Below are positions 122 to 23,823 of a stretch of DNA of 34,561 nt, piece by piece. The notes beneath the pieces were generated by a model, which searched no databases, was not told where the DNA came from, and was given only the letters and a program-made list of their open reading frames with translations. Position numbers and translations under genes: made by a program. Every line of letters begins with the position of its first letter. The first letter of the stretch is position 1. The stretch comes from Deferribacteres bacterium (GTDB lineage Bacteria > Nitrospirota > Thermodesulfovibrionia > UBA6902): NCBI GenBank assembly GCA_013152795.1, contig JAADFS010000192.1:1-34561 (forward strand), given 5' to 3'.

Positions 122-448
122 TTAAAGCAGGGAATCTATCTTGGATTTGAGCTGGGCCTTGGGTACGGCTCCGACTATCTGGTCAGCCACCTTGCCGTCT
201 TTAAAAAACATGAGCGTCGGTATACCCCTGATATTATACCGGCTTGCAAGATCAGGATTCTCATCCGTGTTAACCTTTGCAAACAGCACCCTGCCCTCGT
301 ATTCCTTTGCAAGTTCTTCAACAACAGGAGAGACTATCTTGCACGGCCCGCACCATGTTGCCCAGAAGTCAACCATTACAAGATTCTGCGCCTTAAGAAC
401 CGTCTCCTCAAAATTATCGCTCGTAACACTTGCCACTGTCTCTGACAT
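122..448 (-). CDS. trxA: Thioredoxin
   Basis: 108 aa with [10 protein letters not shown] active site and the IRGIPTL cis-Pro motif; GAGGAGG SD upstream. Confidence 0.97.
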
Positions 449-524: not shown

Positions 525-2540
525 CTAAACCCCTGCTGTCTCCGATTCCTTCAGCCACAGGAGCCTTGAATGGTCGAGGACGGATCTGTTAAGCGCTTCG
601 ATTATATCTGCCGGGCCGGTGTCAAGACCCTGCTTTTCCTCGAACGGCCTGAATACAGGTTCAGCCTCTTCAGGGCCGCCCTTTGTTTTCGGGGTGATAT
701 CTTTTAAAGGCTCCCCGATTGCCTTTGAAAGATTGATAATGATATCACGGTGCTGCTTGGAAACGCCCAGAGGGTCGACAACCTTCCTGACGTCCTTAAC
801 CTTGCCCAGGTAGTTGATTATTGTGCCCTTTGATTCAAGGTATGTTGCGGCCGGCAGCACTATATCGGCCTGTTTTGCAAAATCCGTAAGGTAAGATGTC
901 TGGGCTATGATAAACTTTGCGCCGGGTCTCTTGGAGACAGGGATTTCCCCTACTGCATAAAGCACATCCATGTCACCGGAGATCATCTCCTTGTAGGTCT
1001 TCCCGTCCGCGGGCAGGCCTGCTGCGGCAATGCCCCTTGCATTGGCCTCATACGGCACTGCAACGACCTTGACATCGATCAGCAGCGAGATATTCCTTGA
1101 GGCACTGAAAAGGGACGGGGCGCAGAATATTGCGGGTGACCCCGCACCGGCCAGTATGGCGGCGGCCTTTTCAATATCTTCCGTTACCGCAAGACCTGAG
1201 ACAGCGGCCTCCAGTTCCTTGCCGCCTGTCTTCCCCTTGTCGATCAGGCCCCTTGCTATGTGCGCAAGCGTTGTCGCCTCCTCAGCCTTGATGCTTACTG
1301 TTGCTGCACGGCCTATCCTGATTTCCGCCGAGTTTATGACAATAAGTTTGGCGCCTCTTGAGACCCTCTTTCTTATGCCTGCATCAAGGGCCGGCAGTAC
1401 CCTGCTCCACTGCGAGGGGTCAAGTCCTGCAAGGACGATTGCATCCGTGCCGTCAAGATCAACGGTATCGGAGAGGTTCAGGGAATCGGCATCTGCATAA
1501 AGACTCGCTGTTGTATCCACATTGCCCGTCCGGATTACGTCAGAGGCGAATCTCGAAAGTGCAAGGGCATCCTGGTTGAGTATGCCCGCTGTGCTTATGA
1601 TCCCCGCACCGGCACCTGCCTGCTTTAATCTCTCGGCTGCGGTTTCCAGTGCATCTTTCCATGTGGTCTCCTGCAGCTCGCCGTTGACCCTTTTCATCGG
1701 GACAGTGACCCTTGCGTCCGACGTCACCGCGTCGAATCCGAACCTGCCGGTTGCGCATATGTATCTTTCAGCCGACCCGTCAGCCGCACCAGTGTTTATC
1801 TTTATGATTTCACCGTCTCTTTCACTGGCGATTATATCGCAGCCGCAGCCGCAGGAAAGACAGGCGGATGCGGTCTTCGTATATTCCCACTCCCTGCCCT
1901 TTCTCCACCTGCCGGCTTCAAGGAGGGCATTGACAGGGCATACGTCGATACAGCTCCCGCAGAAAGTGCAGTCGGATTTCTGCAGCGGCCTGTCCATGGC
2001 AGTGACAACCTTTGCACCGACTCCCCTTCCCATGAATTCAAGGACGCTCGTGCCCTGTTCCTTGCACACCCGCACACATCTTCCGCATATGATGCAGTAG
2101 TCAGGGTCTCTCCTGATAAACGGATTTTCCTCATCAACAGGGTATCCGAATTTCTTCCTGCTGAAGCTTGATTCCTTTATTCCAAAGTCATACGCATACT
2201 GCTGCAGAGTGCATGCACCGGCCTTTGTGCAGGTCATGCAGTCAAGCGGATGCATGGAGAGGATAAGGTCTATCACGAATTTCCTTATCTCCTCTAACTT
2301 TTCGGTTCTGGTGTTGACGACCATCCCTTCCTTTACCTTTGTGGTGCAGCCTATCAGCGGGGCCTTCATACCCTCCACCTCAACAAGACACATCCTGCAT
2401 GCGCCTATTCCCCTCATCCCCTTCAGGTAACAGAGGTTCGGAATGTGGATTCCCGCTGTCTCGGCAGCATCAATGAGATTGGTTCCCGCCGGAACACGCA
2501 CTGCCTTGCCATCTATTTTCAGAGTAACTTTTTTTGACAT
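525..2540 (-). CDS. NuoG/HydA-N-terminus-like multi-Fe-S subunit with degenerate molybdopterin-oxidoreductase fold (BfuA-like)
   Basis: N-terminal [2Fe-2S] (LC..GACRMC..C), HxxxCxxCxxxxxC cluster, two ferredoxin-type [4Fe-4S] motifs (CIICGRCVRVC, CTFCGSCIDVCP), CLSCGCGC...C cluster, then a shortened Mo-oxidoreductase-like body (ADIVLPAATYLESKGT). No H-cluster motifs and no C-terminal molybdopterin-dinucleotide-binding domain. Confidence 0.8.
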   Translation of the reverse strand: MSKKVTLKIDGKAVRVPAGTNLIDAAETAGIHIPNLCYLKGMRGIGACRMCLVEVEGMKAPLIGCTTKVKEGMVVNTRTEKLEEIRKFVIDLILSMHPLDCMTCTKAGACTLQQYAYDFGIKESSFSRKKFGYPVDEENPFIRRDPDYCIICGRCVRVCKEQGTSVLEFMGRGVGAKVVTAMDRPLQKSDCTFCGSCIDVCPVNALLEAGRWRKGREWEYTKTASACLSCGCGCDIIASERDGEIIKINTGAADGSAERYICATGRFGFDAVTSDARVTVPMKRVNGELQETTWKDALETAAERLKQAGAGAGIISTAGILNQDALALSRFASDVIRTGNVDTTASLYADADSLNLSDTVDLDGTDAIVLAGLDPSQWSRVLPALDAGIRKRVSRGAKLIVINSAEIRIGRAATVSIKAEEATTLAHIARGLIDKGKTGGKELEAAVSGLAVTEDIEKAAAILAGAGSPAIFCAPSLFSASRNISLLIDVKVVAVPYEANARGIAAAGLPADGKTYKEMISGDMDVLYAVGEIPVSKRPGAKFIIAQTSYLTDFAKQADIVLPAATYLESKGTIINYLGKVKDVRKVVDPLGVSKQHRDIIINLSKAIGEPLKDITPKTKGGPEEAEPVFRPFEEKQGLDTGPADIIEALNRSVLDHSRLLWLKESETAGV

Positions 2541-2630: not shown

Positions 2631-3230
2631 CTATGTTCCAACTGTTTCAGCCTCTTTGACTTTTGCATCAACAACTGCAATAGCCTTTTCCGGACACGCC
2701 GGGACGCATTCGCCGCACTTGACGCATTTGGTCTGCCTGATCTCAAACGGCTGGTACCCGCTGATAAACGCCCGTCTCTTTTCGCCATAGATAGCGCCGT
2801 ATTTGCAGGCCGTCAGGCATTCGCCGCACATGGTGCACTTCGCAGTGATAATCGTGTATTCAATGTAGGCCCCGCATGTCCGCTCCGGACAAATGCCTTC
2901 GACATGCCTGTCGAAGTCTCCTGTATCGAGCCACTGAAGCATAAACCGTGCAGTATCTTTTCCCTTTTTACACATGGAGCCGTCCAGCATATCAGAGGCG
3001 ATCCTTCGGAGTTTGGACAGATCCTCCTCCGCGGCCTTCCCCTCAATCATATTATTCAGAATCACCCTTGCCTCATAGCTCCCCATGGAGCAGGGAAAGC
3101 ACTTGCCGCACATCGGCCCGGCGAGGAATTCCGTCATATAGAAAAGTGCCCTTTCCAAAGGGCATTTCTTTTCATCCGCCGCCTTTTTGATGTCGTCTGT
3201 CTTTATGAGTCTCTTATCTGTCATGGCCAA
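2631..3230 (-). CDS. Stand-alone NuoF C-terminal-like Fe-S protein (NADH_4Fe-4S motif plus 2x[4Fe-4S] ferredoxin)
   Basis: CGKCFPCSMG...SMC (NuoF N3-type cluster), H-x4-C-x4-C, CTMCGECLTAC and CVKCGECVPACP. Confidence 0.8.
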   Translation of the reverse strand: MAMTDKRLIKTDDIKKAADEKKCPLERALFYMTEFLAGPMCGKCFPCSMGSYEARVILNNMIEGKAAEEDLSKLRRIASDMLDGSMCKKGKDTARFMLQWLDTGDFDRHVEGICPERTCGAYIEYTIITAKCTMCGECLTACKYGAIYGEKRRAFISGYQPFEIRQTKCVKCGECVPACPEKAIAVVDAKVKEAETVGT

Positions 3231-3233
3231 ACC

Positions 3234-5573
3234 TCAGTATATCGCCTCTGCCATGTAGATAATCTCCGGCAGGACGTGGGCAACCAGGTCTCTGTAAGTG
3301 ACCATTCCTATGAGCCTGCCCTTTTCAACAATCGGCAGATGGCGTATCTTTTCTTTTGAGACAACCTGGATTGCGGCATTGATCTCTGTTGAAGGTTCAA
3401 ATGTTATGATCTTCGTGGTCATTAAATTCCCGATGGGCTCTGCCTTCAGGTCAACATTCTTGTGGACATAGCGGACTACGTCCCTTTCGGTAAAAATACC
3501 GGCTATTTTCCCTTCTTCGTCAACCACTATCACGTCGCTTATATTCTTCTCAGCCATAAGCCTTACGGCTGCATCCGCAGTCTGGTCCCGGGTAACGGTG
3601 GTCAACTCATCGGGTTTTTTCTTTAAGATATCTCTAAGGACCATTCTCGCCCTCCTGTCTATAAGTTCTATTGTTTCCGTAGGCACCTTGAATTCTTCCT
3701 CAAGTATTACATGCCTCTGTTTCTTTATCATAACGGCATTGATCGGACATGCATTATAACAGGCCATGCACTGTGTGCAGGCATTGCGGTCGATTATATA
3801 TCTCTTTCTCGTCTCGGTAACCGCATTGAACGCGCAGGCCTCTTTGCACAGTCCGCACCTGATGCACGCCGCCTGATCGATGACGAATGCCCCCATGCCG
3901 GTGCATGCCTTTGCACGGCAGTACTTTTCATAGACATGCTCTTCATACTCCTCCCTGAAATACTTGATCGTGCTCAGCACAGGGTTGGGCGCGCTCTGGC
4001 CGAGACCGCAGAGTGAGGCCTTCTGGATGTACTGACCGAGCTCCACGAGCCTGCGGATGTCGCCCTGTTCACCCCTGCCCGATGTGATCCTGTCGAGTAT
4101 CTGGAGCATCTGGTAGGTACCTATTCTGCACGGCGGGCATTTGCCGCAGGATTCGGACTGTGTAAATGAGAGGAAGAACTTGGCCACATCAACCATACAT
4201 GTATCTTCATCCATCACCACCATTCCGCCCGAGCCCATCATGGAGCCCACGGATGCAAGGGAATCAAAGTCTATCGGCAGGTCAAGGTGTTCGGCAGGTA
4301 TACAGCCGCCTGAAGGGCCGCCCGTCTGCACGGCCTTGAACTTCTTATCACCGAGCATACCGCCGCCGATGTCAAATATTATCTCCCTCAGGGTCATGCC
4401 CATGGGTACCTCGACCAAGCCGGTGTTCTTGACCTTGCCGGTAAGTGCAAACACCTTGGTACCGGGTGATGTCTTGGTTCCGATGGACGTGAAGTAGTCG
4501 GAGCCCTTTTCAACGATCACGGGGACGCACGCATAGGTTTCAATGTTGTTGAGATTGCTCGGATAGCCCCACGGGCCGCCCCCTGGTTGTGAAAGCCTCG
4601 GCGGCCTGGGCCTCGGGAAACCCCTCTCACCTTCGATGGAGGCAACAAGGGCCGTGGACTCACCGCATACGAACGCCCCTGCGCCTTCCCTTATATCCAC
4701 TGTAAAACTGAAGTCCGTGCCGAGGATGTTTTTCCCGAGCAGCCCCAGTTCTTCGGCCTGTTTTATTGCTATCCTGAGGTTCTGAACCGCCAGGGGGTAT
4801 TCATGCCTGACATATATAAATCCGTACTGCGCGCCTATTGCATATGCACACAGCGCCATTCCCTCAAGGAGGCTGTGGGGGTCGCCCTCCATAATAGACC
4901 TGTCCATGAATGCGCCCGGGTCGCCTTCGTCACCGTTTGCGATCACAAACTTGATATCCCCCGGCGCCGACTTGGTATGGGCCCATTTCTTGCCTGCAGG
5001 GAATCCTGCGCCGCCCCTTCCCCTGAGATTCGCCCTGTCGACTTCCTGAAGAACCAGATCAGGTGTCATTAAGGCCAGGGCCTTTTCCAGCGCGGCGTAT
5101 CCCCCGACCGCGAGGTAATGATTAATATTGCACGGGTCGATCACCCCGTTGTTTCTCAGGGCGATCCTTATCTGTTTCTTATAAAACGGGATATCCGTCA
5201 TAACGGGTATGGGCTCGCTGAGGATGCCGTCACGGTAAAGGCCCTGCCTGTAGGGCATGTTGCCCAGCATGGAATAGCTCATGATGGAAGATACATTTTC
5301 GGGCCTGGTCCTCTGGTAGAAGATGTTCATGGGTTCCACCTTGAGCACCGGACCTTTCTGGCATATCCCCTGGCAGCCTGTCCTGACTATCTCCACCTCA
5401 ACGCCGCTGTCCGCCGCCTCTTTTTTAAACGCATCTATCACCTTGTGGGCGCCCGTTGCAGTGCATGCAGTTCCACAGCATACCCTCGCCCTGAGGGCGT
5501 CGGGCTTGAATGTGGTATCTTTCAGGCGCTCTCTGAACTCGTAAAGCTCTTTTGGACTGTTAAGTTTCTTCAT
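3234..5573 (-). CDS. NuoF/HydB-like FMN/NAD(P)-binding subunit (BfuB-like) with C-terminal CBS pair
   Basis: N-terminal thioredoxin-like [2Fe-2S] (CCGTAC..CQGIC), LRGRGGAGFP, NGDEGDPGAFMDR, GAGAFVCGESTAL, GGPSGG, SCGKCPPCRIG, SLCGLG, two ferredoxin motifs, then about 130 aa of CBS tandem (IAGIFTERDV, IRHLPIVE, LIGMVTYRDL). Confidence 0.9.
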   Translation of the reverse strand: MKKLNSPKELYEFRERLKDTTFKPDALRARVCCGTACTATGAHKVIDAFKKEAADSGVEVEIVRTGCQGICQKGPVLKVEPMNIFYQRTRPENVSSIMSYSMLGNMPYRQGLYRDGILSEPIPVMTDIPFYKKQIRIALRNNGVIDPCNINHYLAVGGYAALEKALALMTPDLVLQEVDRANLRGRGGAGFPAGKKWAHTKSAPGDIKFVIANGDEGDPGAFMDRSIMEGDPHSLLEGMALCAYAIGAQYGFIYVRHEYPLAVQNLRIAIKQAEELGLLGKNILGTDFSFTVDIREGAGAFVCGESTALVASIEGERGFPRPRPPRLSQPGGGPWGYPSNLNNIETYACVPVIVEKGSDYFTSIGTKTSPGTKVFALTGKVKNTGLVEVPMGMTLREIIFDIGGGMLGDKKFKAVQTGGPSGGCIPAEHLDLPIDFDSLASVGSMMGSGGMVVMDEDTCMVDVAKFFLSFTQSESCGKCPPCRIGTYQMLQILDRITSGRGEQGDIRRLVELGQYIQKASLCGLGQSAPNPVLSTIKYFREEYEEHVYEKYCRAKACTGMGAFVIDQAACIRCGLCKEACAFNAVTETRKRYIIDRNACTQCMACYNACPINAVMIKKQRHVILEEEFKVPTETIELIDRRARMVLRDILKKKPDELTTVTRDQTADAAVRLMAEKNISDVIVVDEEGKIAGIFTERDVVRYVHKNVDLKAEPIGNLMTTKIITFEPSTEINAAIQVVSKEKIRHLPIVEKGRLIGMVTYRDLVAHVLPEIIYMAEAIY

Positions 5574-5607: not shown

Positions 5608-6090
5608 CTATCCGTCGCCGCTTTTAATATCCTCGACTATCTCATCAAGCCTTTTCATGTCTATTTCACCGACGATGCTCTCATTGACCGTCGCCACCGG
5701 TGCAAGGCCGCAGCAGCCGATGCATCCCACGGTCTCAAGGGTCATCGCAAGATCAGGCGTTGTCTCTCCTTCATCTATCTTGAACTCATCCTTGATCCTG
5801 TCGAGAACTTTATCCGCCCCCCTTACATGGCAGGCGGTGCCCGTGCAGACGCGTACTATCTTCCTGCCCCGCGGCGTGAAATAGAACTGTTTGTAAAACG
5901 TCGCTGTGCTGTAAACATCTGACAGCGGTATATCCAGCTTTTTAGATAACCTTATCAGGTCTTCCTCCGGCAGATAATTGCGTTCCTTCTGTATCTGCTG
6001 GAAGGCATGTATGAGGATGCCCCTTTTCTTCTGTGTATCGGTCAGAATATCGCCGACATGTCCTATGACTTCATCAACCTTGAGATTCAC
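5608..6090 (-). CDS. NuoE/HydC-like [2Fe-2S] subunit (BfuC-like)
   Basis: VCTGTACHVRG and GCIGCCGLAP motifs, plus ATFY. Start reassigned to GTG at 6090, preceded by GGAGGT; it overlaps the cooS stop. Confidence 0.9.
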   Translation of the reverse strand: MNLKVDEVIGHVGDILTDTQKKRGILIHAFQQIQKERNYLPEEDLIRLSKKLDIPLSDVYSTATFYKQFYFTPRGRKIVRVCTGTACHVRGADKVLDRIKDEFKIDEGETTPDLAMTLETVGCIGCCGLAPVATVNESIVGEIDMKRLDEIVEDIKSGDG

Positions 6091-8086
6091 TGATACCTCC
6101 CACTCCGGCATGGGCTGCGCCGGCTGCTGATCTTTCCAGTTCCCTCCTGGCAGCCATGTCCATAAGGACCCTTTCGGCGCCGAACTTTCCGGGTTCGTAT
6201 TTTCTCAATTTGAGCCTCTCCCTCGCCTTGTCTATGTAGTCAAGTGTCATCGCAAGAATCTTTTCAGGATCCGGCTCGAAATGAAGCGCTCCCATGTAGC
6301 GCTCAAACCATACTTCGGTCATGATCCTTTCAACTTCCTTGCTCGCTCCGACCGGTGACTCCCCGCCCATGATTACGGGAACACCGGATGCCGCGAAATA
6401 TGTACCGATTGCAATGGCCTTCTCGGACATCCACTCCGGAGCGATTCCAACGGCAGGCATTCCGCCGATCTCATCGGACAGGCCCCCTTCATGCGCCATG
6501 GCCGTTGCTATCGTGAGTATCCTCGAGTTGTCTACGCACGCGCCGAGGTGAAGGATGGGCGGGATTCCGATTGCCTCACAGACCTCCCTGAGGCCTGGGC
6601 CGGCATTTTCAAGCGCCATCTCGGGCGTTAAATATCCGGCGGTCCCGCATGCTGCAGAGCCGCAGCCGGTTGAGACGATGAGAACGTCATTTTTTATAAG
6701 CTCGGTTGCAAGGTATTTGTGAATGCTTGTGGCCTGCACCCTCGGGTTGTCGCATCCTACCAGCCCGACCACGCCCCGGATCCTTCCGGCCATGATGGCG
6801 TCATTCAAAGGCCTGAAGGATGCACGCCATTTTCCGCCCTGCATGTATTCGATATACTCATGGGAGAAACCTGCTATCAGCGGCGTCTTGCGGGTGATAT
6901 GGCTTCCCTCGCTTGTCCTGTTCGGGAAATTGTCTATGGCCATTCTTATAATCTTCTCCGCCGTCTCCCTTGCATGGTGCTCGTCGTATTCAACGTGGAC
7001 TGCCCCGGGTATCTTGGCCTTGGGGCTGGTGGTGATGATCTTTGTATGGAATTTCTCCGACAGCTTGGCGATGGCAGGCATGATGCACTGCACATCAACC
7101 GTCATGGCGTCGATCAGACCAGTCATAATACCCAGTTCCTGGTTTGTAAACCCGCCGGCAGTGGGTATCCCGTGCCTCATGAGGACCTCGTTTGCAGTGC
7201 AGCACATGCCGCCGAGATTGATGCCCTTCGCCCCCTTGGATTTTGCGTATTCAATCATCTCCGGCGAGGATGCCACATCAACGATTATCTCGGCAAGGGT
7301 GGGCTCGTGGCCGTGGACGATGAGGTTGACCTCGTCCTCCTTGAATATGCCGAAGCTGGATTCGGCCCTGAGGGGTTTGGGTGTTCCGAAGAGGATGTCC
7401 GTGATGTCCGTGGAGATCATGCAGCCGCCCCAGCCGTCCGCCAGTGCGGTCCTTAATCCCTGTGCCAGCAGGTGATCGGCCTCGTGGTCCACACCCACAC
7501 TTGTCCGGTGCATGGCCTCCACCACCTCCCTGTCTATGCCGCGCGGGGCAATCCCCCATTTCCTCCATCTCTCCTGCGTCTTCTCGGGAGCCCTTTTGTT
7601 GTAATTCAGTTCCCCTGTCTGGCGCCCGAAATCCTCAAGGAATTTAAGGGCGACATCTTTTGCAACATCATTGACAGGCCTGCCCTCGAATTCTATTCCG
7701 AGTATACCGGCAACCTTGTACAGTTTTTTGACGTCGGTTATCTTGAAGTCCTTTGCCGTACCCTCGGCGGCCGCCAGGAGGGTCATGGCCATGTCTCTTG
7801 CGTGATCAGAGTGGGCGGCGGTGCCTGCCGCTATCATCCTTACGAGGTTTCTTGCAGCCACCGTGGCAAGCGATGCGCCGCATACCCCTGCCGCCTTTTC
7901 CTCGGCGTTCCGGCCCACGAGCCTGCACGGGCCCATATGGCATACCCTGCAGCAGGCCCCGGTCTCGCCTATGGGGCACTGCTTCAGTTTCTCCGCACGC
8001 TCAAAGCATGTCTCAAGATGGTGGGACTCACCCCATTCTATTATCTCTTCTGCTGATGTGCTTGCGCTTTTTGTCACTTTATCCAT
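6074..8086 (-). CDS. cooS: Anaerobic Ni-Fe carbon monoxide dehydrogenase catalytic subunit (CooS/AcsA)
   Basis: D/B-cluster Cys (CPIGETGACCRVCHMGPC), AHSDH, and C-cluster ligands GHEP, MCCTANE, DVQC, GCDN, TGCG, GACVDNSR; also WMSEKA. Confidence 0.97.
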   Translation of the reverse strand: MDKVTKSASTSAEEIIEWGESHHLETCFERAEKLKQCPIGETGACCRVCHMGPCRLVGRNAEEKAAGVCGASLATVAARNLVRMIAAGTAAHSDHARDMAMTLLAAAEGTAKDFKITDVKKLYKVAGILGIEFEGRPVNDVAKDVALKFLEDFGRQTGELNYNKRAPEKTQERWRKWGIAPRGIDREVVEAMHRTSVGVDHEADHLLAQGLRTALADGWGGCMISTDITDILFGTPKPLRAESSFGIFKEDEVNLIVHGHEPTLAEIIVDVASSPEMIEYAKSKGAKGINLGGMCCTANEVLMRHGIPTAGGFTNQELGIMTGLIDAMTVDVQCIMPAIAKLSEKFHTKIITTSPKAKIPGAVHVEYDEHHARETAEKIIRMAIDNFPNRTSEGSHITRKTPLIAGFSHEYIEYMQGGKWRASFRPLNDAIMAGRIRGVVGLVGCDNPRVQATSIHKYLATELIKNDVLIVSTGCGSAACGTAGYLTPEMALENAGPGLREVCEAIGIPPILHLGACVDNSRILTIATAMAHEGGLSDEIGGMPAVGIAPEWMSEKAIAIGTYFAASGVPVIMGGESPVGASKEVERIMTEVWFERYMGALHFEPDPEKILAMTLDYIDKARERLKLRKYEPGKFGAERVLMDMAARRELERSAAGAAHAGVGGISESQG

Positions 8087-8160: not shown

Positions 8161-10359
8161 TTAGAACATCGGTTCCATCTCAAGCGCCGGATGCCCGACA
8201 CTTGCAAGATATTCCAGAAGCTTTTCAGAATCTTCCGCGATAGTCTCATCCGCAATCTTATCCATTAAATCAGGCACCCCCTCTTCCTCGCACCTCTTTT
8301 TGAAATCCTCGGCGATTCTCTCCTTGAGATTCTTTGTCATCCAGACTATTCTCCTGATTCCGCCGTCTGCATAGAGGAACTTGCGGCTTGTAATGAAATT
8401 CACCCCTATCCCCATAAAACCGGGGTTCTGCGTGCCTCCACCGACTGTACCGGCCAGTGTGGAGAATTTCATTCCAACAGGGGTCATGCCTGTATGGCCT
8501 CTCTGCACGAGCATTACCCCGTTGGCCTCAGGGATAATTGCAACGATACACTCAAAACAGCCGCAGGATGTCATGGGATTATCCATGATTGTGTACAGAT
8601 TGAGCGATTCAACCGCACCCGCGGAATTGGCCTTGAGGTATTCATCAACACCGGCCCACCTGCCTGCCTTGGCGTCCAGCACCTCGCCCTTCTTTATGGG
8701 CTGGTTGCCGCCTGTGGGGTCTATCTCGAAGGCGGCCTTTGTGTCCAGCCAGTTGTAAGCGCCGCACAGACCCAGGCGCTCCGGGCTTATAACGCATACG
8801 TGGGACGGCGCGAACGACTGGCACAGGAGGCAGGAGTAATAGGTATCCACTGATTCGTCCGTGAGGCCGGCAAGCCTGTGGTCCCTTTCCTTGTAGACGG
8901 CCCTTGCCTGTTCCTGGAGTTCGAGGACGTCCTTTTCATCGAAATAAAGTGTGACCTGGACCTTATCGACAATCGCCTTGAACCTGTTGTGTGTCATGGT
9001 GTTGTGTATTATGCCGATATGCTCCAGCGTGATGCCGTCCTTGTACGCCTGTTTGCTGATTCTCATCCATACGATGTCGCGTTGTCCCATGTGCCACAGG
9101 CCCTGTGCTTCGTTTATGTTATGATGGAGCTTTCTCTCGATAATGGCCTCAAAGTCCTTCTGCATCTTCCGGCCTGCAACGTCTATGACAATCCCGAGCG
9201 GCATCTGCCCGCCGGCCTTGTATCTCTCTTCTATATCAGTGCCCACAAGCACTACTTTGCCGTCTTCGATCTCATCCATTTCCCTTGTTCTTACCCATTC
9301 AAATGCAGGTGTGCGGTTGCCGCCGAACTCTATGAACATGTCTTCTTTCCTGATCCTCTCGCCCTCGAATGCAGGGCCGTAGGAGACGGGGATAGGCGGT
9401 TTCTCAACCGTTACCTTAAGCCCTCTGACCTCAAAGGCCCTCTGTACGATCTTGCTGTGGTCGAGTTCTTTTTCGACATGCTCGTAGGTGCATACCCCTG
9501 TCGGGTGGATGACCGGGACATCGGTATCGCATATTGCGGGGTATCCCATATTGATGGCTCCGGCACCCGTGGACCACTTGACGTCGTCAAGCTCGCCCAG
9601 GACAAGGGCGAAAGCAAAGACCCTGTCTTTTGTATATTTCAGATGCGCCTTGTAATCCCCGGGCTTGTTGCCGCCGAAGATCAGGGACGCCCTGATGGAC
9701 CAGTCGAGCGCATAGAGTGTATGTTCTGTTTTCGTGCCGAGAGGGACGATATATGTATCCCAGCCGAGCTCGACATTCTTCCTCAGAAGTTGCCTCGTGA
9801 CGCTGTCGCCTCCCGATTCCCCGGAGAGGAATATGAGGATGTTCTTTTCCTGCAGTTCCCTCACGATTTTCACCGCGGTTTCATCATCAGGGGCCGCGCC
9901 GATGATGGCTGCAAAACCCGGCATCCTGCCGTCAACAAGCTGGATGCCCAGGTTTCTCTGAATGGTGTCCGTGATGAAGCCGTTGTATACATAACCTGTT
10001 TCAGGGTCTGTATCCGGCTCAAGCCCCTCAATATATCTCAGGGCCAGTATGATCTCCTCGCAGAAAAGGGTTGCCATGCCCGAATCCAGGGCCTCTCCGA
10101 GATATGGTTTCCAGAGCTTTTCCTCCGGCTCCTCGTGCAGCATCTCCCTTGCCATTTCCAGGGCAACCTTCATGTCGGCAAGTGTCTTGACAGGGAATGC
10201 CGTCATTGCATACACCAGCGGAAGGTAAAAAGCAGTGTCCGGAAACTCAAACACGAAGTCCTTTCCTTTTTCCGCAATCGCCTTATCAAGCATCTCCTCC
10301 GCCGTCCTGAAGAGACTGTGTGAAGCCCTTATTGCAGCAGAGGCAATTATCTTTGACAT
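8161..10359 (-). CDS. acsB: Acetyl-CoA synthase (bacterial-type, 732 aa)
   Basis: FPDTAFYLP N-terminal domain, GPAFEGERIRK, A-cluster ligands CLLCQSFAPSHVC..GLCG and TSCGCFEC. Confidence 0.97.
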   Translation of the reverse strand: MSKIIASAAIRASHSLFRTAEEMLDKAIAEKGKDFVFEFPDTAFYLPLVYAMTAFPVKTLADMKVALEMAREMLHEEPEEKLWKPYLGEALDSGMATLFCEEIILALRYIEGLEPDTDPETGYVYNGFITDTIQRNLGIQLVDGRMPGFAAIIGAAPDDETAVKIVRELQEKNILIFLSGESGGDSVTRQLLRKNVELGWDTYIVPLGTKTEHTLYALDWSIRASLIFGGNKPGDYKAHLKYTKDRVFAFALVLGELDDVKWSTGAGAINMGYPAICDTDVPVIHPTGVCTYEHVEKELDHSKIVQRAFEVRGLKVTVEKPPIPVSYGPAFEGERIRKEDMFIEFGGNRTPAFEWVRTREMDEIEDGKVVLVGTDIEERYKAGGQMPLGIVIDVAGRKMQKDFEAIIERKLHHNINEAQGLWHMGQRDIVWMRISKQAYKDGITLEHIGIIHNTMTHNRFKAIVDKVQVTLYFDEKDVLELQEQARAVYKERDHRLAGLTDESVDTYYSCLLCQSFAPSHVCVISPERLGLCGAYNWLDTKAAFEIDPTGGNQPIKKGEVLDAKAGRWAGVDEYLKANSAGAVESLNLYTIMDNPMTSCGCFECIVAIIPEANGVMLVQRGHTGMTPVGMKFSTLAGTVGGGTQNPGFMGIGVNFITSRKFLYADGGIRRIVWMTKNLKERIAEDFKKRCEEEGVPDLMDKIADETIAEDSEKLLEYLASVGHPALEMEPMF

Positions 10360-10406: not shown

Positions 10407-10835
10407 CTAATGGCGCTTCCTGCACTTCCGGCATAAGCCGTAAAACTCGATACTGTTGCCGAGCAATTCAAATCCGTGTGTGAGCTCTTCCGGCACGTCC
10501 AGCTTGAAATCCGTGTGCAGATCGAGAATCTTCTTGCACTTAATGCACAAAATATGGTGGTGTTTGGTGGTGTCCGGGTCATATCTTTTCTTGCCGGAAT
10601 CTATCTTGAGCTCCTTCACGCGTTGTTTGTTTTTCAGCGCCTCAAGCGTGTTGTAAACCGTTGCAAAAGACATTGTGGGATAGTGTTTCAGCACCGCCTT
10701 GTAAATGTCTTCGGCAGACGGATGCGACTTGTTGCCCCTCAGAAAATTCAGTATGGCAAGCCGCTGGGGCGTTAATTTAATCTGAAGTCGTCTGAATTCT
10801 TTCATGGTTTTGATTTTTCTTCTGTCATTCCTCAA
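10407..10835 (-). CDS. Fur-family transcriptional regulator, PerR-like (start TTG 10835 or ATG 10805)
   Basis: LTPQRLAIL, HPSAEDIY, SFATVYNTL, HHHILCIKC and C-terminal CRKC structural Zn pairs. Confidence 0.92.
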   Translation of the reverse strand: MRNDRRKIKTMKEFRRLQIKLTPQRLAILNFLRGNKSHPSAEDIYKAVLKHYPTMSFATVYNTLEALKNKQRVKELKIDSGKKRYDPDTTKHHHILCIKCKKILDLHTDFKLDVPEELTHGFELLGNSIEFYGLCRKCRKRH

Positions 10836-11081: not shown

Positions 11082-12422
11082 CTATGCACGGTTTTTCAGA
11101 AAAGTCGGAATGGCGTTCGCCTCCCTCGGGCCGACCGTTATCTTCCATCCCTCGAGCTTGTCCTCGAGCGCGCCGCTGAGGATTGCAACCTGACCCGGCA
11201 GGATAAGCTCCTTGTGGCTGATCTGGTTCTCCACCCCGCTTTCCTTTATGAACTGCGCGATCTTTGCGGCCGTGAACTTACCGGCAGCCCAGGCAGTCAG
11301 AACGGAAAGACCCTCGCAGTCCATTACGGCAAGCCGTGCCGGCACCCGGCTGTTTTCAATCTCACCCGATACAATGAAATAGGTGAGCGAGAAATTCGTT
11401 GTAATCATAAGCGGTGAATCCGGACCCGGCTCTCCGATTTCGTAAATCTTCTGCTCCACCTGCATCGGCACCTGCGGGTCGGTGTAGAGATTCTGCCTCA
11501 GCGTGAAGAGCGCGAGATTCTTCCACTTTTCAATACTGCCGAGTATGACTATTGAGGCGTATTTGGCGATTGCCACAGAGGCAATGGATGCCTCGAAAAG
11601 GGGATCATCCCTCAACACGCTGTTTATCACCGGATATCCGAGCGGTTTGAAGTTCTTCTTAAGCGCAGAACGCCTGATCTGCGTATTGTGCTCTATGATC
11701 TCCCTTGCCGTCTTTGCGCCGGAGTCAAGTACGATATCCTCCACGCCGAGCCCCTTGATCTTTTCAGTGAGCACCGAGAGGGCCTCCGGACCCTGCGCGC
11801 ATGCAACAAGGGGAACACCGTGAGCCTTTGCAACAGCGGCCATGGCTTCGGCGTTTCCGTCATCAGCTCCGTAGATCAGCGGCTTTCTCTCTGCAACGGC
11901 CTTTACGGCGGCCTCGGCCGCAGCGACATCCTTGCAGTTCAGTATGATGGCCGCCTCCGGCGCCTTCTCCGCCACAAGCCTTACGGCAGCCTCATATCTG
12001 GCGGCGTCGCCCGAAGCATATTCCACGGATATGGCATCAACCCTCAGTTTCTGCCCCACCCGGTCGATTTCGGAAGAGGCCACTTCGGATGCCTTTTCCG
12101 CAAGTTCGCCGTCGCTTAAGCTGTCTTTAACATTAAGCGCCAGGGCACAGGGATTGATGAACTTCTTCTCATGCCTGAACAGAACGGTCTCTCCGCCCAG
12201 CTTTACAGCCTTTTCCCCGGTGCCGAGCTCGAATGACCTTATGGGCGGCGCCGACGCCTCGCCGAGGGTTTTCTTTGCCTCCTCCGACACATCAGGACAC
12301 GCTGAAAGCTCCACGCCTCCCTGCGCGAGTTTCATTGCAAAGGCCAGACATGTGGGAAATCCGCATTTCTTGCAGTTTGTCTTCGGAAGAAGCTTAAATA
12401 TCTGAATTCCGGTTAATGCCAT
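11082..12422 (-). CDS. acsC: Corrinoid iron-sulfur protein large subunit
   Basis: LPKTNCKKCGFPTCLAFA [4Fe-4S] domain, GGETVLFRHEK, YTDPQVP, TTNFSLTYF, GLSVLTAWAAGKF, GPREA. Confidence 0.97.
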   Translation of the reverse strand: MALTGIQIFKLLPKTNCKKCGFPTCLAFAMKLAQGGVELSACPDVSEEAKKTLGEASAPPIRSFELGTGEKAVKLGGETVLFRHEKKFINPCALALNVKDSLSDGELAEKASEVASSEIDRVGQKLRVDAISVEYASGDAARYEAAVRLVAEKAPEAAIILNCKDVAAAEAAVKAVAERKPLIYGADDGNAEAMAAVAKAHGVPLVACAQGPEALSVLTEKIKGLGVEDIVLDSGAKTAREIIEHNTQIRRSALKKNFKPLGYPVINSVLRDDPLFEASIASVAIAKYASIVILGSIEKWKNLALFTLRQNLYTDPQVPMQVEQKIYEIGEPGPDSPLMITTNFSLTYFIVSGEIENSRVPARLAVMDCEGLSVLTAWAAGKFTAAKIAQFIKESGVENQISHKELILPGQVAILSGALEDKLEGWKITVGPREANAIPTFLKNRA

Positions 12423-12442
12423 TGTTTACCTCCATATTTTGC

Positions 12443-13384
12443 TCAAACCAGTTCACCGATGGTCTTTTCAACGGTCTCTATCGCCGCAGGATGCCTCATG
12501 ATAAGGAGGTTTGTCCCGGCCAGAAGCATCGCCGTTGCGGTAATCGCCTCCCAGGCAATGCCCCTCTCACGGAGCGCCCCCCATTCAGGAACATCCGCTT
12601 CCGGGGCAACGGTCTCCTTTATCTTCCAGACATACATGCCGACATCCCCGAGTATCGGAGGCTGCATGGTCGGATCATTCTGGGCAAGCGCGGCAAGCCG
12701 TATCCTCTCCATCACTGAATAGGTATACTCCAGGCCGTACCCGAGCGCAGAGCACATCGGGTCTGTAATGAGCTTTTCTTTGCTGAAACCCATCTGGGTT
12801 ATCAGGATGTTCAACTGTTTTGCAAGATTGATGTCAAGCTCCGACATTGCTATCAGTTTATGATTATGCGCGAGGGCCGCGGCCACTATGGTTTTGTAAT
12901 TGCCCTCCTGGGCCTTTCCGATTATGCAGTTGTACCCGCTTGCAGCCTCGGCTGCGGCAACCAGCACCGTGGAGTCCTTTTCAATGTGGTTGGAGCCGAG
13001 TATGACAAGGGGCACATCAACAGCCGCCAGCACATCCTTGACGGTCTTGGCGGCATCCTCGGCAGACCTGTCGTCCCTGTCTGGATGGGTGCTCAGAAGC
13101 CTGAGCGCAATGGCCTTTGCATTCAGGACATCCTGGCAGTGTTTGGCCCATGCAACAGGATCGCCGCTTACATCCTTGTATGCCTCTTTTACTGTATCCG
13201 GCCAGTCATCGGGCGGACAGTCCTGAATCTCATAGGCAATCACGGGCTTGTTGGGCTGTTGTCCTTCAAAGGACAGGAACGGAAGGGTGTTTTCACCGCC
13301 TACTGTAACCGCCCTGTCGTCTTTGCCGAAATCAAAGCTTAGGACTTTACCGGTATATGACTCCTTAGGAATAACGTAAGACAT
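12443..13384 (-). CDS. acsD: Corrinoid iron-sulfur protein small subunit
   Basis: VGGENTLPF, DINLAKQLN, LGYGLEYTYSVMERIRLAAL, MRHP motifs. Confidence 0.96.
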   Translation of the reverse strand: MSYVIPKESYTGKVLSFDFGKDDRAVTVGGENTLPFLSFEGQQPNKPVIAYEIQDCPPDDWPDTVKEAYKDVSGDPVAWAKHCQDVLNAKAIALRLLSTHPDRDDRSAEDAAKTVKDVLAAVDVPLVILGSNHIEKDSTVLVAAAEAASGYNCIIGKAQEGNYKTIVAAALAHNHKLIAMSELDINLAKQLNILITQMGFSKEKLITDPMCSALGYGLEYTYSVMERIRLAALAQNDPTMQPPILGDVGMYVWKIKETVAPEADVPEWGALRERGIAWEAITATAMLLAGTNLLIMRHPAAIETVEKTIGELV

Positions 13385-13442
13385 ATTGACCTCCGTAAAA
13401 AGATTTGCTCAGGAAACAGACGCTGCTGCATTGAGCCTTTCA

Positions 13443-14231
13443 TTACATCTCCAGGTACGAGTGCGCATAAAGTGTATTTCCGAGAAAGATGTCCGTTGTC
13501 TTGAGCACATCCATAAGATCTTTGTCAAGAGGGTTCATGATCGCCGCTGAAAGACCCTCGTACATAAGCAGTGTCAGGTATACCCTGTCTATCAGGCTTC
13601 TCATCTCCTTCGGCACGCCGTTTGATACATTACTCAGCCCCACAACCGTTTTCATCGGGGGGTCATTCAGTTCCTGGAACATCTTCACGGCCTTGATGGC
13701 ATGGATGGCCTGATCCTGCATTGTGCAGACCTGGAGAATCAGCGGATCAAGGAAAAGATCTTCCATCGGCACGCCGTATTCAGCGGCCCTGGCCATAATC
13801 TCGGCGGCTATCCCGCATCTTTCCTCCGCGTCGGCAGGCAGGCTGCCCTTTCCGAGGGTCAGGGCGATACACTGCGCATTGTGTTTCGCCGCCATCTCGA
13901 GCATGACAAACCTGTCCGGCTCATTTGACGTGGAGTTGATAAGGGGCCTTCCCCATTCATTGTTATGCACCTGCAGGCCCGCCTCAAGCGCGGCCGCATT
14001 GGTGGTATCCAGGCACAGGGGGGCCTGCACCACCTGCTGTATGCTCTCGACCATCCACTTCATGAGGTCTTCGCCGTTTTCCTCGGCAGGACCTATATTT
14101 ACGTCTATGAAGTGTGCGCCTGCCTTCCACTGGGCTGCGGCAAGCTCCTGGATGGGTTTGGGGTCGCGGGCATTCATCGCCTCCCTGACCTTTTTCGCTA
14201 TAACGCTGATTTTTTCACCTATAATTATCAT
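13443..14231 (-). CDS. acsE: Methyltetrahydrofolate:corrinoid Fe-S protein methyltransferase
   Basis: Pterin-binding TIM barrel (MIIIGEKI, IDVN, LCLDTT, INS, DPL, GLSNVSNG), 262 aa, adjacent to acsD/acsC. Confidence 0.92.
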   Translation of the reverse strand: MIIIGEKISVIAKKVREAMNARDPKPIQELAAAQWKAGAHFIDVNIGPAEENGEDLMKWMVESIQQVVQAPLCLDTTNAAALEAGLQVHNNEWGRPLINSTSNEPDRFVMLEMAAKHNAQCIALTLGKGSLPADAEERCGIAAEIMARAAEYGVPMEDLFLDPLILQVCTMQDQAIHAIKAVKMFQELNDPPMKTVVGLSNVSNGVPKEMRSLIDRVYLTLLMYEGLSAAIMNPLDKDLMDVLKTTDIFLGNTLYAHSYLEM

Positions 14232-14312: not shown

Positions 14313-14444
14313 GTGGGAAGGAAAATATGTGCAATTATTTGGTAATAAGAATTTTAAATAAGAAGTCAGGGGCGGCACGGCGGTGCCGTTACGGGGGGCG
14401 CAGCGGAGTTGAAGTTTTCCGCCGGTATCAGACATAATATTGCC

Positions 14445-15605
14445 ATGAATCCCACGTTCAGGAAGGTCTATTCGGAAATCCAGGGCGGAATGAAGCTCTC
14501 CAAGTGCCGGAAATGCGGCTGCATGAGGGGAACGCTGGAGAATCTCAGGGCATCCCTGCCCTTGCTGAAAATCAAGGATGCAAAGGAACTTCTCCGGCAT
14601 GTGAATGAATGGCTCGGGCAGCTTGAACCGCTCGAATACCCGTGTTTCGGGTGCAAATACTGCATTCCGCCGGAGGCCATGACCAGGCTCACTGCAAAAT
14701 ACCCGGCCCTTGCATCAGCCAGTCTGTCAGGCTGCGGGATGACGGTGAATAATGATTCCTGGCCGCCTGTGGAAGGCGAGTATACTGTGCTGGACGCATC
14801 AGCTCCGGTGGCCGTCTCCACCCTCTCAAGCGTCAAACTCGAGGAAAAGCTGGCCAGGCTCAGGCCCGAAGGTCTCTGCATAGTCGGCAAGACAGAGACG
14901 GAAAACATCGGAATCGACAAAATAGTGAAAAACGTCACTTCCAATCCCGCCATCACCTCCCTGATCCTGGCGGGAAAAGACACCGAGGGGCACCAGAGCG
15001 GGAAAACTCTCCTGGCACTTTGGGAAAACGGGGTGGACGAAAACATGCGCGTGATCGGTTCAAACGGCAGGCGTCCCATACTCAAGAATGTAACCCGCTC
15101 GGATGTGGAAAAATTCAGAAAACAGATACACATAGAAGACCAGATAGGCTGTGAAAACACCCGGACGTTAGCCAGGAAAATCCGGGAAATGTCCCGGAAG
15201 GCCGCTGCAGCGGCGGGTGCTTCCTCTTGCGGATGCCACGGTGACTGCGGCACACCGGCTGTTGCCGTATCAATGCCCTCCCTGTCCGTTGCAAAGGTCG
15301 GTTCTTCAGAAGTTCCCGTGATTACGGCGAAAAAACACAGAAAATCAGCGGTCAGGCTTGACAGCGCGGGGTATTTCGTGATCCTGCCGTCTGAGAAGGA
15401 TAAATCCATCCTGGTGGAGCACTATTCCTATGACAATAAGCTGCTCAGGAAGATCAAAGGCAAAAACAGCCGGGATATTTATTTTACGATTATCAATAAT
15501 AAATGGGTTACAGAGTTAAGCCATGCGGCATACCTGGGGAAAGAACTCGCAAGGGCTGAATTATCCATCAGGGAAGGATTCAAATTTGTTCAGGACGGGG
15601 CATAG
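14445..15605 (+). CDS. Soluble MtrA-like putative corrinoid protein with N-terminal Cys-rich domain and C-terminal DUF4346-like domain
   Basis: WPPVEGEY..., [43 protein letters not shown] matches the MtrA domain including the cobamide His. C-terminal LDSAGYFVI...[18 protein letters not shown] is DUF4346-like. N-terminal CRKCGC and CFGCKYC. Start taken as ATG 14445. Confidence 0.8.
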
Positions 15606-22464: not shown

Positions 22465-23365
22465 TCAGTACGGGTATCCCACCGATCTGAAAATCTCCCT
22501 GCACTCTTTCTCCTTTTCAACATCCGGTCTTATGCCGTTCAGTGCGGCGGGCGCATCCTTTCCGAGGGATTGTCTTTTTGCAATCCCCCCTGAATTATAG
22601 GGCAGCAGTTCATAATATGCGCAGCCTGTGTTTTTAATGAAAGAGGCGATACCGGTGAGATTCTCCGCCGTTGCCGTAATACCGGGGACAAGGGGTACTC
22701 TCGGGATGACCTGAATGTCCCGTGCCTGAACCAGGCTCGTGAAATTCTCCAGTATCGCATCATTCACTCTGCCCGTATATTTCTCATGCTCATGCCGGTC
22801 AATAAACTTGATGTCGTAATATATGAGGTCAACATAGGGCAGAATGCCTGTCCTGAATCCGGTGGATCCCGGATGTCTGGATTGCAATGTGAATATTGTT
22901 TTTCTTCAGTTCTTCCATTACCGGCTGAAGGTAACGGGTATAAAGCGCCGGCTCCCCACCTGAGAAAGTCACACCGCCGTTTGAGGTCTCATAAAAGACG
23001 CGGTCTCTCAAGAGTATCTCCACGAGTTCGCCGGCAAGATAATATCCGCCTATCAGCTCCACGGCCCCCGCAGGACAGATGTCCGCGCATCTGCCGCATG
23101 CAGTGCATTGCTCCCTGTTTATCCTCTGCATGTCATGCATACTGACCGCACCTTCGCTGCATACCCTCCGGCAGTCTCCGCACAGTATGCACCTGTCAGG
23201 ATAAAAGGCGACCTCGGCGGCAGGGTCCATGGATTCAGGATTGTGGCACCAGATGCACGAAAGAGGGCATCCCTTGAGAAAAACGGTGGTCCTTATGCCC
23301 GGGCCGTCATCAAGGGCAAAGCGGCGTATATTGAATATCAACGGCTGTTTTTGTTTCCTGCTCAT
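22465..23365 (-). pseudogene. Glycyl-radical enzyme activating protein (radical SAM), frameshifted
   Basis: DGPGIRTTVFLKGCPLSCIWCHNPE, two ferredoxin motifs and GGVTFSGGEP in ORF 22829-23365. The C-terminal half (DLIYYDIK..H..YTG..N..IL.N, RVPLVPG, LLPYN) is in another frame. Break near 22860-22875. Confidence 0.85.
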
Positions 23366-23823
23366 ACACTCCCTGTTGCCATCAACTGGAGACGCTTTGC
23401 CATATAGGCGAATTTGTACAGATAGTTGAGATTGCCGCGGGGCGTTACATCCTGCCTGAGCATTGAGCCGAGGATATCGGGTTTGGGTGAAATGAGATAG
23501 TTCAGGAGCACCCTGCCGTTTCTGAACTCTATCGTGATATCGGGATTATCTATTAATCTCTCGGAGACCCTCATCCTGTTGTCTCTGAAAACCGCTGAAA
23601 CGGTTATGCTCCCGTCCCTGCTCTTGAAGAGATACCTTCCGTTGAATCCCTCTATATTCCGCCTGAAGTCCCCGTAGTTTACAAGGAAGACAAGGCTCAT
23701 GAGTTTTAACAGTGTCTCCAGGAACTCCTCGGCGAACTCGGACTCCATGCACCTGAGCCATTTCTTCATCAGCCATCTGGCCCTGAGTTTCCGGAAAAGT
23801 ATGAAGTTCAGAAAATCTTCCAT
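23362..23823 (-). CDS. SCP2 sterol/lipid-binding-like protein
   Basis: F..NIEGFNGRYLF, F....M.V.....PDITIEF, D....L...V...GNLNYLYKF pattern resembles the SCP2 fold; lies between the GRE and its activase, with an ATGA overlap to the activase. Confidence 0.6.
   Translation of the reverse strand: MEDFLNFILFRKLRARWLMKKWLRCMESEFAEEFLETLLKLMSLVFLVNYGDFRRNIEGFNGRYLFKSRDGSITVSAVFRDNRMRVSERLIDNPDITIEFRNGRVLLNYLISPKPDILGSMLRQDVTPRGNLNYLYKFAYMAKRLQLMATGSV

Follow-up and report, generated by a model that had tools for sequence, protein, structure and literature searches.

A CBS pair at the C-terminus of a HydB/NfnB-like flavin subunit encoded with carbon monoxide dehydrogenase/acetyl-CoA synthase in Thermodesulfovibrionia

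The minus strand of contig JAADFS010000192.1 (assembly GCA_013152795.1), from a member of the nitrospirotal class Thermodesulfovibrionia, carries a gene (3234..5573) that raises an unusual question. It resides in an operon for carbon monoxide dehydrogenase/acetyl-CoA synthase (CODH/ACS), and its product resembles the flavin subunits of HydB-type electron-bifurcating enzymes throughout, only to continue past the C-terminal ferredoxin domain into a pair of CBS domains. Is this fusion real, and what could a CBS pair accomplish at the end of such a subunit? The analysis covered a stretch of 34,561 nucleotides (positions 1 to 34,561 of the contig), called the window in the following. We report that the fusion is real and conserved. 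The gene is best explained, on the basis of its sequence and that of its neighbours, as encoding the flavin (B-type) subunit of a HydB/NfnB-like (Bfu) NAD(H)- and ferredoxin-linked module that is co-encoded with CODH/ACS in Thermodesulfovibrionia, and the CBS pair would fit an optional, detachable regulatory part of this module.

The fused gene and the forms in which its relatives occur

The gene consists of a single open reading frame (ORF) of 779 residues without any stop codon or frameshift at the junction between core and CBS pair, and its description as a Bfu-type (NuoF/HydB-like) B subunit with a CBS pair is based on this ORF, on Pfam and on matches in the PDB. Residues 1-550 (3924..5573) encompass an N-terminal thioredoxin-like [2Fe-2S] domain, the domain for flavin mononucleotide (FMN) and NADH, an SLBB domain and an N3-type [4Fe-4S] domain (Pfam: 2Fe-2S_thioredx, PF01257, residues 28-99; Complex1_51K, PF01512, residues 178-351, expect value (E) 2e-40; SLBB, residues 374-423; NADH_4Fe-4S, PF10589, residues 462-546, E 7.5e-34; best solved chain 7t2r_B, E 1.3e-224). 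The ferredoxin or 'bridge' domain with 2x[4Fe-4S] follows (residues 551-616, 3726..3923); it contains two Fer4 motifs (564-614) and aligns with the C-terminal domain of solved HydB. Conservation and the full-length structural model delimit a conserved two-helix linker of 29 residues (617-645, 3639..3725), which leads into CBS1 (residues 646-707, 3453..3638) with the motif G692-x-x-T695-E696-R697-D698 and CBS2 (residues 714-767, 3273..3434) with R744-H745-x-P747 and G756-x-x-T759-Y-R761-D762. The protein ends with a conserved tail, LPE..YMAE..Y (residues 768-779, 3237..3272). Both repeats were identified by Pfam, alignment, AlphaFold2 and Foldseek, the Pfam match to PF00571 (E 7.1e-26, 90.7 bits compared with a cutoff of 24) falling into two stretches, the second of which is 714-767. 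An initial annotation made from the DNA letters had placed a CBS pair, joined to the ferredoxin domain by a short linker, at 3234-3640 of the window. This segment encodes residues 645-779 plus the stop codon, and Pfam, AlphaFold2 and Foldseek confirmed the pair at exactly these coordinates.

In 107 full-length orthologues, Cys32/37/67/71, Cys476/479/482/522 and the eight Cys of the ferredoxin domain (570-609) proved invariant. The same applies to His546, Cys552 and Cys557 just upstream of the bridge domain, which are identical residues in 7t2r_B. Furlan et al. (PMC9499530) describe a flexible 'bridge' domain, the C-terminal iron-sulfur (FeS) domain of HydB, that is attached via a zinc hinge and takes up open and closed positions; the hinge metal site of Thermotoga maritima HydB is built from three Cys and one His. 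The premise of the initial annotation that the C-terminal ferredoxin arm of HydB is mobile therefore stands. His546, Cys552 and Cys557 are candidates for such a hinge metal site. In the full-length AlphaFold2 model, which has a mean predicted local distance difference test score (pLDDT) of 86.1, the linker forms helices at 619-628 and 632-642. Mean pLDDT values for blocks of ten residues across 621-660, i.e., the linker and the start of CBS1, are 74, 60, 74 and 71, and that for the last nine residues is 49. The low confidence predicted for linker and tail would fit a tether and a tail that becomes ordered only when bound to a partner. Three other NuoF paralogues of the same genome are 52-53% identical to the window protein, end at query residues 616-631 and have no CBS pair.

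A search with residues 560-779 returned 156 proteins at E<=1e-3, with identities over this region down to 48%. All of the 120 matches listed carry PF00571 and 118 also PF01512; 113 have lengths of 771-785 residues, while the other seven are shorter partial entries. They stem from sources named Nitrospirae, Nitrospirota or Nitrospiraceae and are designated 'CBS domain-containing protein' or NuoF/HndC. The architecture is thus already present in databases, because annotation pipelines label the proteins with both domains. Its prevalence, which the initial annotation had left to a domain search, was determined for 401 sampled genomes of the phylum Nitrospirota with the same query, matches over at least 213 of the 220 residues counting as full-length. 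The fused form occurs at 48 full-length places in 46 of these genomes. Stop-free open frames of 767-880 residues were present at 41 of the places, five are cut by contig ends and two contain one TAA. With 44 of the 46 genomes the fusion resides mostly in Thermodesulfovibrionia, and the remaining two genomes belong to a single family (f25) of another class. One genome with the fusion, G013, is a closed chromosome of 2.37 Mb. Among 40 loci from named records, 15 were full-length and originate from Thermodesulfovibrio sp. or from metagenome-assembled genomes of Thermodesulfovibrionia, Thermodesulfovibrionales or Nitrospirae; the other 25 comprise 24 ferredoxin-only matches in Bacteroidota records and one weak match to the CBS part in a Tenacibaculum genome. 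The junction is spanned with 0 gaps, at 92-95% likeness, by contigs from three other studies. No RNA dataset was listed as covering positions 3000-4200 of the window.

A library of 1.84 billion representatives clustered at 50% identity contained 33,416 matches to residues 560-779, of which the best 150 were listed. Only one of the 27 matches at E<=1e-30 is a full-length fused protein (P0123, 779 residues, same Pfam architecture), and the remainder include fragments and one stand-alone member of 140 residues. Fusions in other NuoF/HydB lineages were not detected among the best 150 of the 33,416 matches, a negative result that does not prove absence because more distant fusions could rank lower; eight candidates were checked with Pfam and the others would, judging by length and match position, be multi-CBS proteins, polyferredoxins or transporters. 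With a single full-length fused representative among these best matches, and with solved chains ending near residue 617, the initial annotation was right in considering the design unusual. One library entry, P0173 (302 residues), has a NADH_4Fe-4S domain behind the second CBS repeat. This gene call probably runs from the end of a NuoF.CBS gene into the 199-residue FeS protein encoded next to it, through read-through or a frameshift in the contig.

The pair also occurs as a protein of its own. In a few genomes of the phylum, stand-alone matches with 42-47% identity reach the last residue of the query, and five such loci were examined. In genome G320, the CBS ORF begins 12 nucleotides past NuoF in the order NuoE-NuoF-NuoF-[CBS ORF]-199aa-NuoG-like; in G256 it comes last in the acs-linked operon, behind the NuoG-like gene, in G342 it is located between NuoE and NuoF, and in G376 and G330 it adjoins a paralogous NuoEFG set (51-52% identical). 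Genome G392 encodes the fused form with an extra CBS ORF directly 3'. FTERD, RHLPV and the LPE..Y.AE..Y tail at the C-terminus of the fused form recur in the separate ORFs, from which the linker is missing. A scan of metagenomes yielded ten loci at 43% identity or above, all ten with NuoF, the 199-residue protein or a NuoG-like gene, in arrangements that include a fused gene plus an extra ORF, NuoF.CBS plus NuoF plus an ORF, and tandem NuoF.CBS genes. The next three metagenome loci, at 36-40% identity, had no window operon proteins in the DNA examined around them. Gene contexts and sequences together indicate a CBS subfamily that is dedicated to this kind of NuoEFG-like module and accompanies it in fused form or as a separate subunit. 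Intact ORFs of this subfamily within the operon speak for a real partnership and not for an artefact.

A third group of orthologues lacks the pair. These were studied at 20 places, picked non-randomly for a ferredoxin-only match in a frame of ~630-660 residues on a contig with AcsB; 18 were informative. All 18 loci have the order of the window, NuoE-NuoF-199aa-NuoG-like, with NuoF ending at query residues 617-627, and a CBS match at E<=1e-6 was found nowhere in the 20 loci. The CBS-less cores are 62-82% identical to that of the window protein, and six from the family to which the window belongs reach 77-82%; the core of the CBS-less G300 type is 82% identical. In one of the loci (L104 of genome G150), AcsB is followed by NuoE and two tandem NuoF genes with no CODH match between them; the other 17 CBS-less operons have CODH.

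Fused and CBS-less forms do not fall into two separate branches. A maximum-likelihood tree of the core (residues 1-616) was calculated by a quick search with SH-aLRT support only, from 44 rows that represent 20 CBS-bearing, 21 CBS-less and one degenerate-CBS protein plus two outgroup paralogues, the N-terminally cut L036 having been left out. The tree follows taxonomic families, and CBS-bearing and CBS-less proteins are interleaved in it, which requires at least seven state changes, five of them forced by starred branches. A single CBS-bearing clade was rejected (AU test, delta lnL 237, p 1.7e-9), with the p-value weakened as a formal test because the group was named after the quick tree had been seen. 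The pairs share linker, motifs and tail, and their order of identity is the same as that of the cores: identity to the window protein in the pair region versus the core is 64% versus 84% for G211 from the same family, 52-57% versus 71-73% for family f7 and 47-53% versus 64-69% for family f17. Given these shared features and the same identity order, one gain followed by repeated loss would be the simplest reading, the tree itself being unable to tell gain from loss. That relatives carry the pair fused, separate or not at all is consistent with an optional regulatory part. In some operons the B subunit is duplicated in tandem (L045 on contig C36 of genome G199, L115, L117, L118 and L122). Of the three B copies in G199, one has CBS, another a CBS region that is shortened and only 32% identical, and the third none; metagenome contigs carry a NuoF.CBS gene with NuoF behind it, or NuoF.CBS twice in succession.

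The CBS pair and its possible role

The AlphaFold2 model of residues 617-779, calculated from an alignment of 23 rows, has a mean pLDDT of 82.7 and contains two strand-helix-strand-strand-helix units. Foldseek matched it to the solved CBS pairs 2ef7, 3fhm, 4o9k, 2rc3 and 4fry with E ~1e-13, target-normalised TM scores of 0.81-0.89 and root mean square deviations of 1.6-2.4 Å over ~125-131 columns. Further matches are AcuB entries titled with AMP, ADP, ATP or diadenosine tetraphosphate (Ap4A) and CBSX2 with AMP. In sequence comparisons, 9znf_5, 4fry_A (E 5e-20), MJ1225 and ST2348 were the nearest solved pairs.

Conservation is unevenly distributed in the 107 orthologues. The mean frequency of the top residue is 0.88 in both the flavin core and the N3 domain, 0.79 in the 2x[4Fe-4S] domain, 0.70 in the linker (617-645), 0.60 in CBS1, 0.68 in CBS2 and 0.81 in the tail (768-779). 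Within the appendage, R640, M644, G692, T695, E696, D698, R744, H745, P747, G756, R761, L768, P769 and E770 are invariant in 107 of 107 sequences. D762 is kept in 106, and position 759 is T, S or N in all 107; E626, P631, E636 and R641 in the linker and Y773 and Y779 in the tail are at least 90% conserved. The sequence G-h-h-T/S-x-x-D is the ribose-binding signature of nucleotide-binding CBS domains, and it is present in both repeats (GIFTERD, 692-698; GMVTYRD, 756-762). Both canonical motifs are kept, which supports the initial annotation on this point. The Arg beside each Asp, like the Arg-His of the CBS2 strand, would be suitable for contacts with phosphate groups.

When two copies of residues 617-779 were modelled together, a homodimer was predicted with an ipSAE of 0.49, compared with 0.00 for the best of three controls. 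Among proteins solved as one-chain pairs, 20 of 30 reached this mark, compared with 1 of 23 among those solved as single chains. The dimer runs agreed in at least 55% of contacts, and the partner pLDDT was at least 74. In the predicted interface, the CBS1 helices meet head to head and are joined by CBS2 helices (~667-679, 696-709, 738-744 and 760-765).

In principle, these features can be combined into the following mechanism. The pair would hang on a flexible linker of ~30 residues from the 2x[4Fe-4S] 'bridge' end, which is the mobile low-potential arm in solved HydABC. The ligand would contain adenosine, with AMP, ADP and ATP as the most likely candidates, and would occupy one or two canonical sites in each pair; two pairs from two protomers would assemble into a head-to-head CBS module. 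A ligand-dependent rearrangement of this module could then restrain or free the arm. How fast, or which way, electrons pass between the NAD(H)/flavin site and the low-potential branch for ferredoxin and CODH/ACS would be tuned in this manner. We give even chances to a regulatory role with an adenylate as the ligand; which ligand binds, that the pairs dimerise within the enzyme, how the arm is affected and which reaction the module catalyses are points that we infer. A bolder version is tentative and, in our view, somewhat doubtful: that the window protein belongs to the first HydB-type enzyme with its mobile FeS arm under direct allosteric nucleotide control, in which a dimeric CBS module reads the energy charge or NAD(H) and gates the electrons for CODH/ACS. 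If this were true, CO2 reduction and acetyl-CoA synthesis would be throttled at the point of electron delivery.

Several observations weigh against adenylate-dependent regulation of the arm. The bodies of CBS1 and CBS2 are less conserved than the flavin core, and linker and tail are predicted with low confidence in the full-length model. The motifs as such do not separate AMP, ADP or ATP from other adenosyl ligands such as NAD(H), S-adenosylmethionine (SAM) or Ap4A. CBS-pair dimers are common among solved structures, and the dimer prediction may do no more than mirror likeness to them; it indicates likeness and not binding. With the CO/CO2 couple near -520 mV, classical bifurcation with NAD and ferredoxin is not obviously needed. 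Finally, many close orthologues do without the pair, which is thus dispensable for the core reaction.

Among the alternatives, the one that survives best also assigns an allosteric effect on the arm to the pair and differs in the signal, which would be NAD(H), SAM, Ap4A, a cyclic dinucleotide or ionic strength. We consider this unlikely but worth serious attention. The conserved motifs mark a ribose site and no particular nucleotide, and the ligands of the closest folds are varied: AcuB occurs with Ap4A, MJ0100 with SAM and methylthioadenosine, a KpsF-type pair with a ligand, and 3fhm, the fold match of rank 2, was presumably deposited with NADH and AMP. On the other hand, the invariant R744/H745 and R697/R761 beside the ribose-binding Asp would fit a phosphorylated ligand better than SAM, and they do not discriminate between NAD(H) and adenylates. 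A mainly structural role, in which the pair serves dimerisation or docking of protomers or ties the subunit to CODH/ACS or another partner with no ligand switching, appears rather improbable. It would be in line with the predicted homodimer and its clear distance from the controls, and the tail, as the best-conserved part of the appendage that is also kept in the separate-ORF forms, would fit protein-protein contact. Against it, the invariant residues cluster in the ligand-site motifs (TERD, RH and YRD) and not only on the predicted interface helices, and CBS-less orthologues in the same operon manage without the pair.

Plant CBSX proteins are said to activate thioredoxins, and a thioredoxin gene (122-448, minus strand; Pfam) is located 3' of the NuoG-like gene at the end of the operon. 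That the pair acts on this thioredoxin in a similar manner is very improbable: CBSX1 and CBSX2 are found among the sequence and fold matches but not among the closest ones, and only 1 of 19 related loci with downstream genes, the one from the same genus, has a thioredoxin 3' of the operon. The weakest alternative, an artefact of two genes caused by an assembly error, a lost stop codon or gene-call read-through, which the initial annotation would have concluded from orthologues with CBS as a separate gene, has next to no probability left. Such genes do occur in a few lineages, one of them only 12 nucleotides past NuoF, and P0173 illustrates a probable read-through call, but the fusion is present at 48 full-length places in 46 genomes, is stop-free at 41 of them, is spanned without gaps in contigs of three studies and possesses a conserved 29-residue linker that the separate-ORF forms are missing. 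We thus state with confidence that an artefact is excluded.

The CODH/ACS operon and the partner subunits

In the window, the genes of the operon are all located on the minus strand in the order AcsE-like methyltransferase, AcsD, AcsC, Fur-family regulator, AcsB, CODH, NuoE-like subunit, NuoF-CBS, 199-residue FeS protein, NuoG-like subunit and thioredoxin. AcsC and AcsD (corrinoid FeS protein) and the AcsE-like methyltransferase occupy 11082..14231 and acetyl-CoA synthase AcsB 8161..10359 (Pfam in each case). The CODH catalytic subunit of the AcsA/CooS type is encoded at 6074..8086 (Prismane, E 1.6e-159; TIGR01702, 592.7 bits with a cutoff of 478). A Fur-family regulator (10407-10835, Pfam) lies between acsC and acsB, and tblastn matches to it at this position were confined to loci from the family to which the window belongs (L029, L030, L090, L091 and L093).

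Three further proteins accompany NuoF-CBS. The first is a NuoE/HydC-like [2Fe-2S] subunit of the Bfu C type (5608..6111; PF01257, E 5e-45; NuoE/HoxE models). The second is the FeS protein of 199 residues (2631..3230), a homologue of the C-terminal half of HydB with N3-type and 2x[4Fe-4S] parts and no flavin domain, which matches residues 465-625 of 7p5h_B (E 1.2e-24) and is 29% identical to residues 454-617 of the adjoining NuoF-CBS protein. Directly 3' of NuoF, its gene is conserved in 19 of the 20 fused loci and in all 18 CBS-less ones, and no separate subunit of this type in solved Bfu complexes was present among the PDB matches. The third is a NuoG-like subunit of the Bfu A type with 671 residues (525..2540; Pfam, PDB and TIGR models), whose pterin-fold domain has neither a Cys/Sec as molybdenum ligand nor a Molydop_binding cap. 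The match to TIGR01973, the NuoG model, extends over positions 1-604 of its 606 and scores 343.6 bits, which is below the cutoff of 470. The top PDB match of the subunit is FdsA (6tg9), over the N-terminal 400 residues. Where FdsA has the Cys-His of 'RVCH', the Cys of which we take to be the molybdenum ligand, the NuoG-like protein has Tyr-Ala, and it gave no match to PF01568.

A formate dehydrogenase was considered and rejected on the grounds of the Tyr-Ala site, the missing cap and a score of 132 bits for TIGR01591, compared with a cutoff of 666. A hydrogenase was likewise rejected: no Fe_hyd_lg_C or NiFe domain was found in the 12 minus-strand ORFs scanned between 122 and 14600, i.e., from the thioredoxin to upstream of AcsE, and [FeFe]-hydrogenase models match only the N-terminal FeS part of the NuoG-like protein. 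With no H-cluster domain and no Cys/Sec as ligand for molybdenum or tungsten, the complex would be neither a hydrogenase nor a formate dehydrogenase. The label 'HydB' used in the initial annotation therefore holds for the fold family of the flavin subunit and not for the enzyme, the A subunit being NuoG-like. Judged by its sequences, the module looks like a Bfu-type C/B/A set plus a 'half-B' protein without a recognisable third catalytic site, and since no such site is obvious within the module, the CODH encoded next door would be the only candidate.

The operon context was analysed by overlaying 20 regions around fused genes with the window proteins. The order AcsB-CODH-NuoE-NuoF.CBS-199aa-NuoG-like is present in 17 of the 20 loci, and the genes for the 199-residue and NuoG-like proteins lie downstream in 19. 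Exceptions are one locus that is cut by the contig end, genome G233 with the order NuoE-NuoF.CBS-NuoF-199aa-NuoG-like-CODH, and a second copy in genome G202 that has none of these neighbours. AcsB occurs in 206 of the 401 genomes and in 45 of the 46 with a fusion, the one exception being a genome of 94% completeness; 161 of the 206 AcsB-positive genomes have no fusion according to the search with residues 560-779. In total, the four-protein module was found in 35 of 38 informative examined operons containing CODH or AcsB.

Other genes of the window were noted in passing. Divergent from the acs operon, 14409-15605 (plus strand) encodes a protein of 398 residues with MtrA-like and PterinBD-DUF4346 domains, possibly an accessory protein for corrinoid/pterin methyl transfer, and genes for ParA and ParB come after it. 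The region 22829-26319 (minus strand) contains a gene for a glycyl-radical enzyme of 826 residues (PFL-like and Gly_radical domains), which is followed on its 3' side by an ORF of 153 residues without a Pfam match and then by a gene for a small Fer4/Fer4_12 activase-like protein.

Comparison with known systems

Solved Bfu B subunits align with residues 1-616 from end to end (E 1e-224 to 1e-187). The closest chains are HydB of the NiFe enzyme HydABCSL (7t2r_B), HydB of [FeFe]-HydABC (8a6t_B, 7q4v_B and 7p5h_B), 8oh5_B, 9bov_B, 9mqx_B and NfnB of NfnABC (9n5u_B). The N-terminal [2Fe-2S] domain, the FMN/NADH site, the N3-type cluster and the C-terminal 2x[4Fe-4S] domain are common to all of them and to the window protein, and NuoE- and NuoG-like partners are encoded alongside. 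Respiratory NuoF chains, in contrast, align over residues ~147-562 at most and have neither the extra N-terminal nor the extra C-terminal FeS domain. No solved HydB, NfnB, HoxF or NuoF chain extends past query residue ~617, where the window protein adds linker, CBS pair and tail. The module also differs from solved Bfu complexes in its A-type partner, which has no hydrogenase, GltD or active pterin site, in the extra 199-residue 'half-HydB' and in its CODH/ACS neighbour. By domains and partners, the protein has the features of a Bfu B subunit, and bifurcation or confurcation with NAD(H) and ferredoxin is a putative function. Electron gating in HydB-type bifurcating enzymes is debated, and published models rest on movement of the C-terminal FeS domain (PMC9499530). 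A ligand-sensing module on that same domain would provide a direct experimental handle. The value of the system lies mainly in its matched natural versions, fused, split and CBS-less, which can be compared to test conformational gating. It also draws attention to a NAD(H)/FeS module of four proteins, as yet uncharacterised, that is encoded with CODH/ACS across Thermodesulfovibrionia and may explain how these sulfur-cycling autotrophs or acetate oxidisers link the Wood-Ljungdahl pathway to their pyridine-nucleotide and ferredoxin pools.

Bfu-type genes clustered with Ni-CODH have been termed 'Codh-Bfu', with CO/CO2 proposed as the third substrate (Schut et al. 2022, PMC9304861). According to that article, the type comprises four sequences, all from Firmicutes (clade 49), in which BfuB and BfuA flank the Codh genes. 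The window, in contrast, has the order CODH-C-B-199aa-A downstream of a full acs operon and belongs to the Nitrospirota. Both have CODH close to the Bfu genes, directly upstream of the C subunit in 17 of our 20 loci. The term 'CBS' occurs 0 times in the main text and one supplement file of PMC9304861, and the available parts of PMC5165239, PMC8671834 and PMC6085454 contain nothing relevant to the fusion. In a search that did not extend to subscription-only papers and most supplements, no literature linking a CBS domain with NuoF, HydB, HndC, Bfu or CODH/ACS was found.

A trio of NuoE-, NuoF- and NuoG-like subunits is also common to the NAD-dependent formate dehydrogenase FdsABG (6tg9), but unlike FdsA, the NuoG-like protein of the window has Tyr-Ala in place of the Cys-His of 'RVCH', carries no Molydop_binding cap and finds its full-length match in TIGR01973. 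With known CBS modules, i.e., MJ1225 (3kh5), 4fry, ST2348 (2ef7), Atu1752 (3fhm), AcuB (9s4x), CBSX and IMPDH, the pair shares fold and motifs, and a homodimer is predicted here. It differs from them in its new host enzyme, in a conserved C-terminal tail of its own and in being tied to NuoEFG-like operons.

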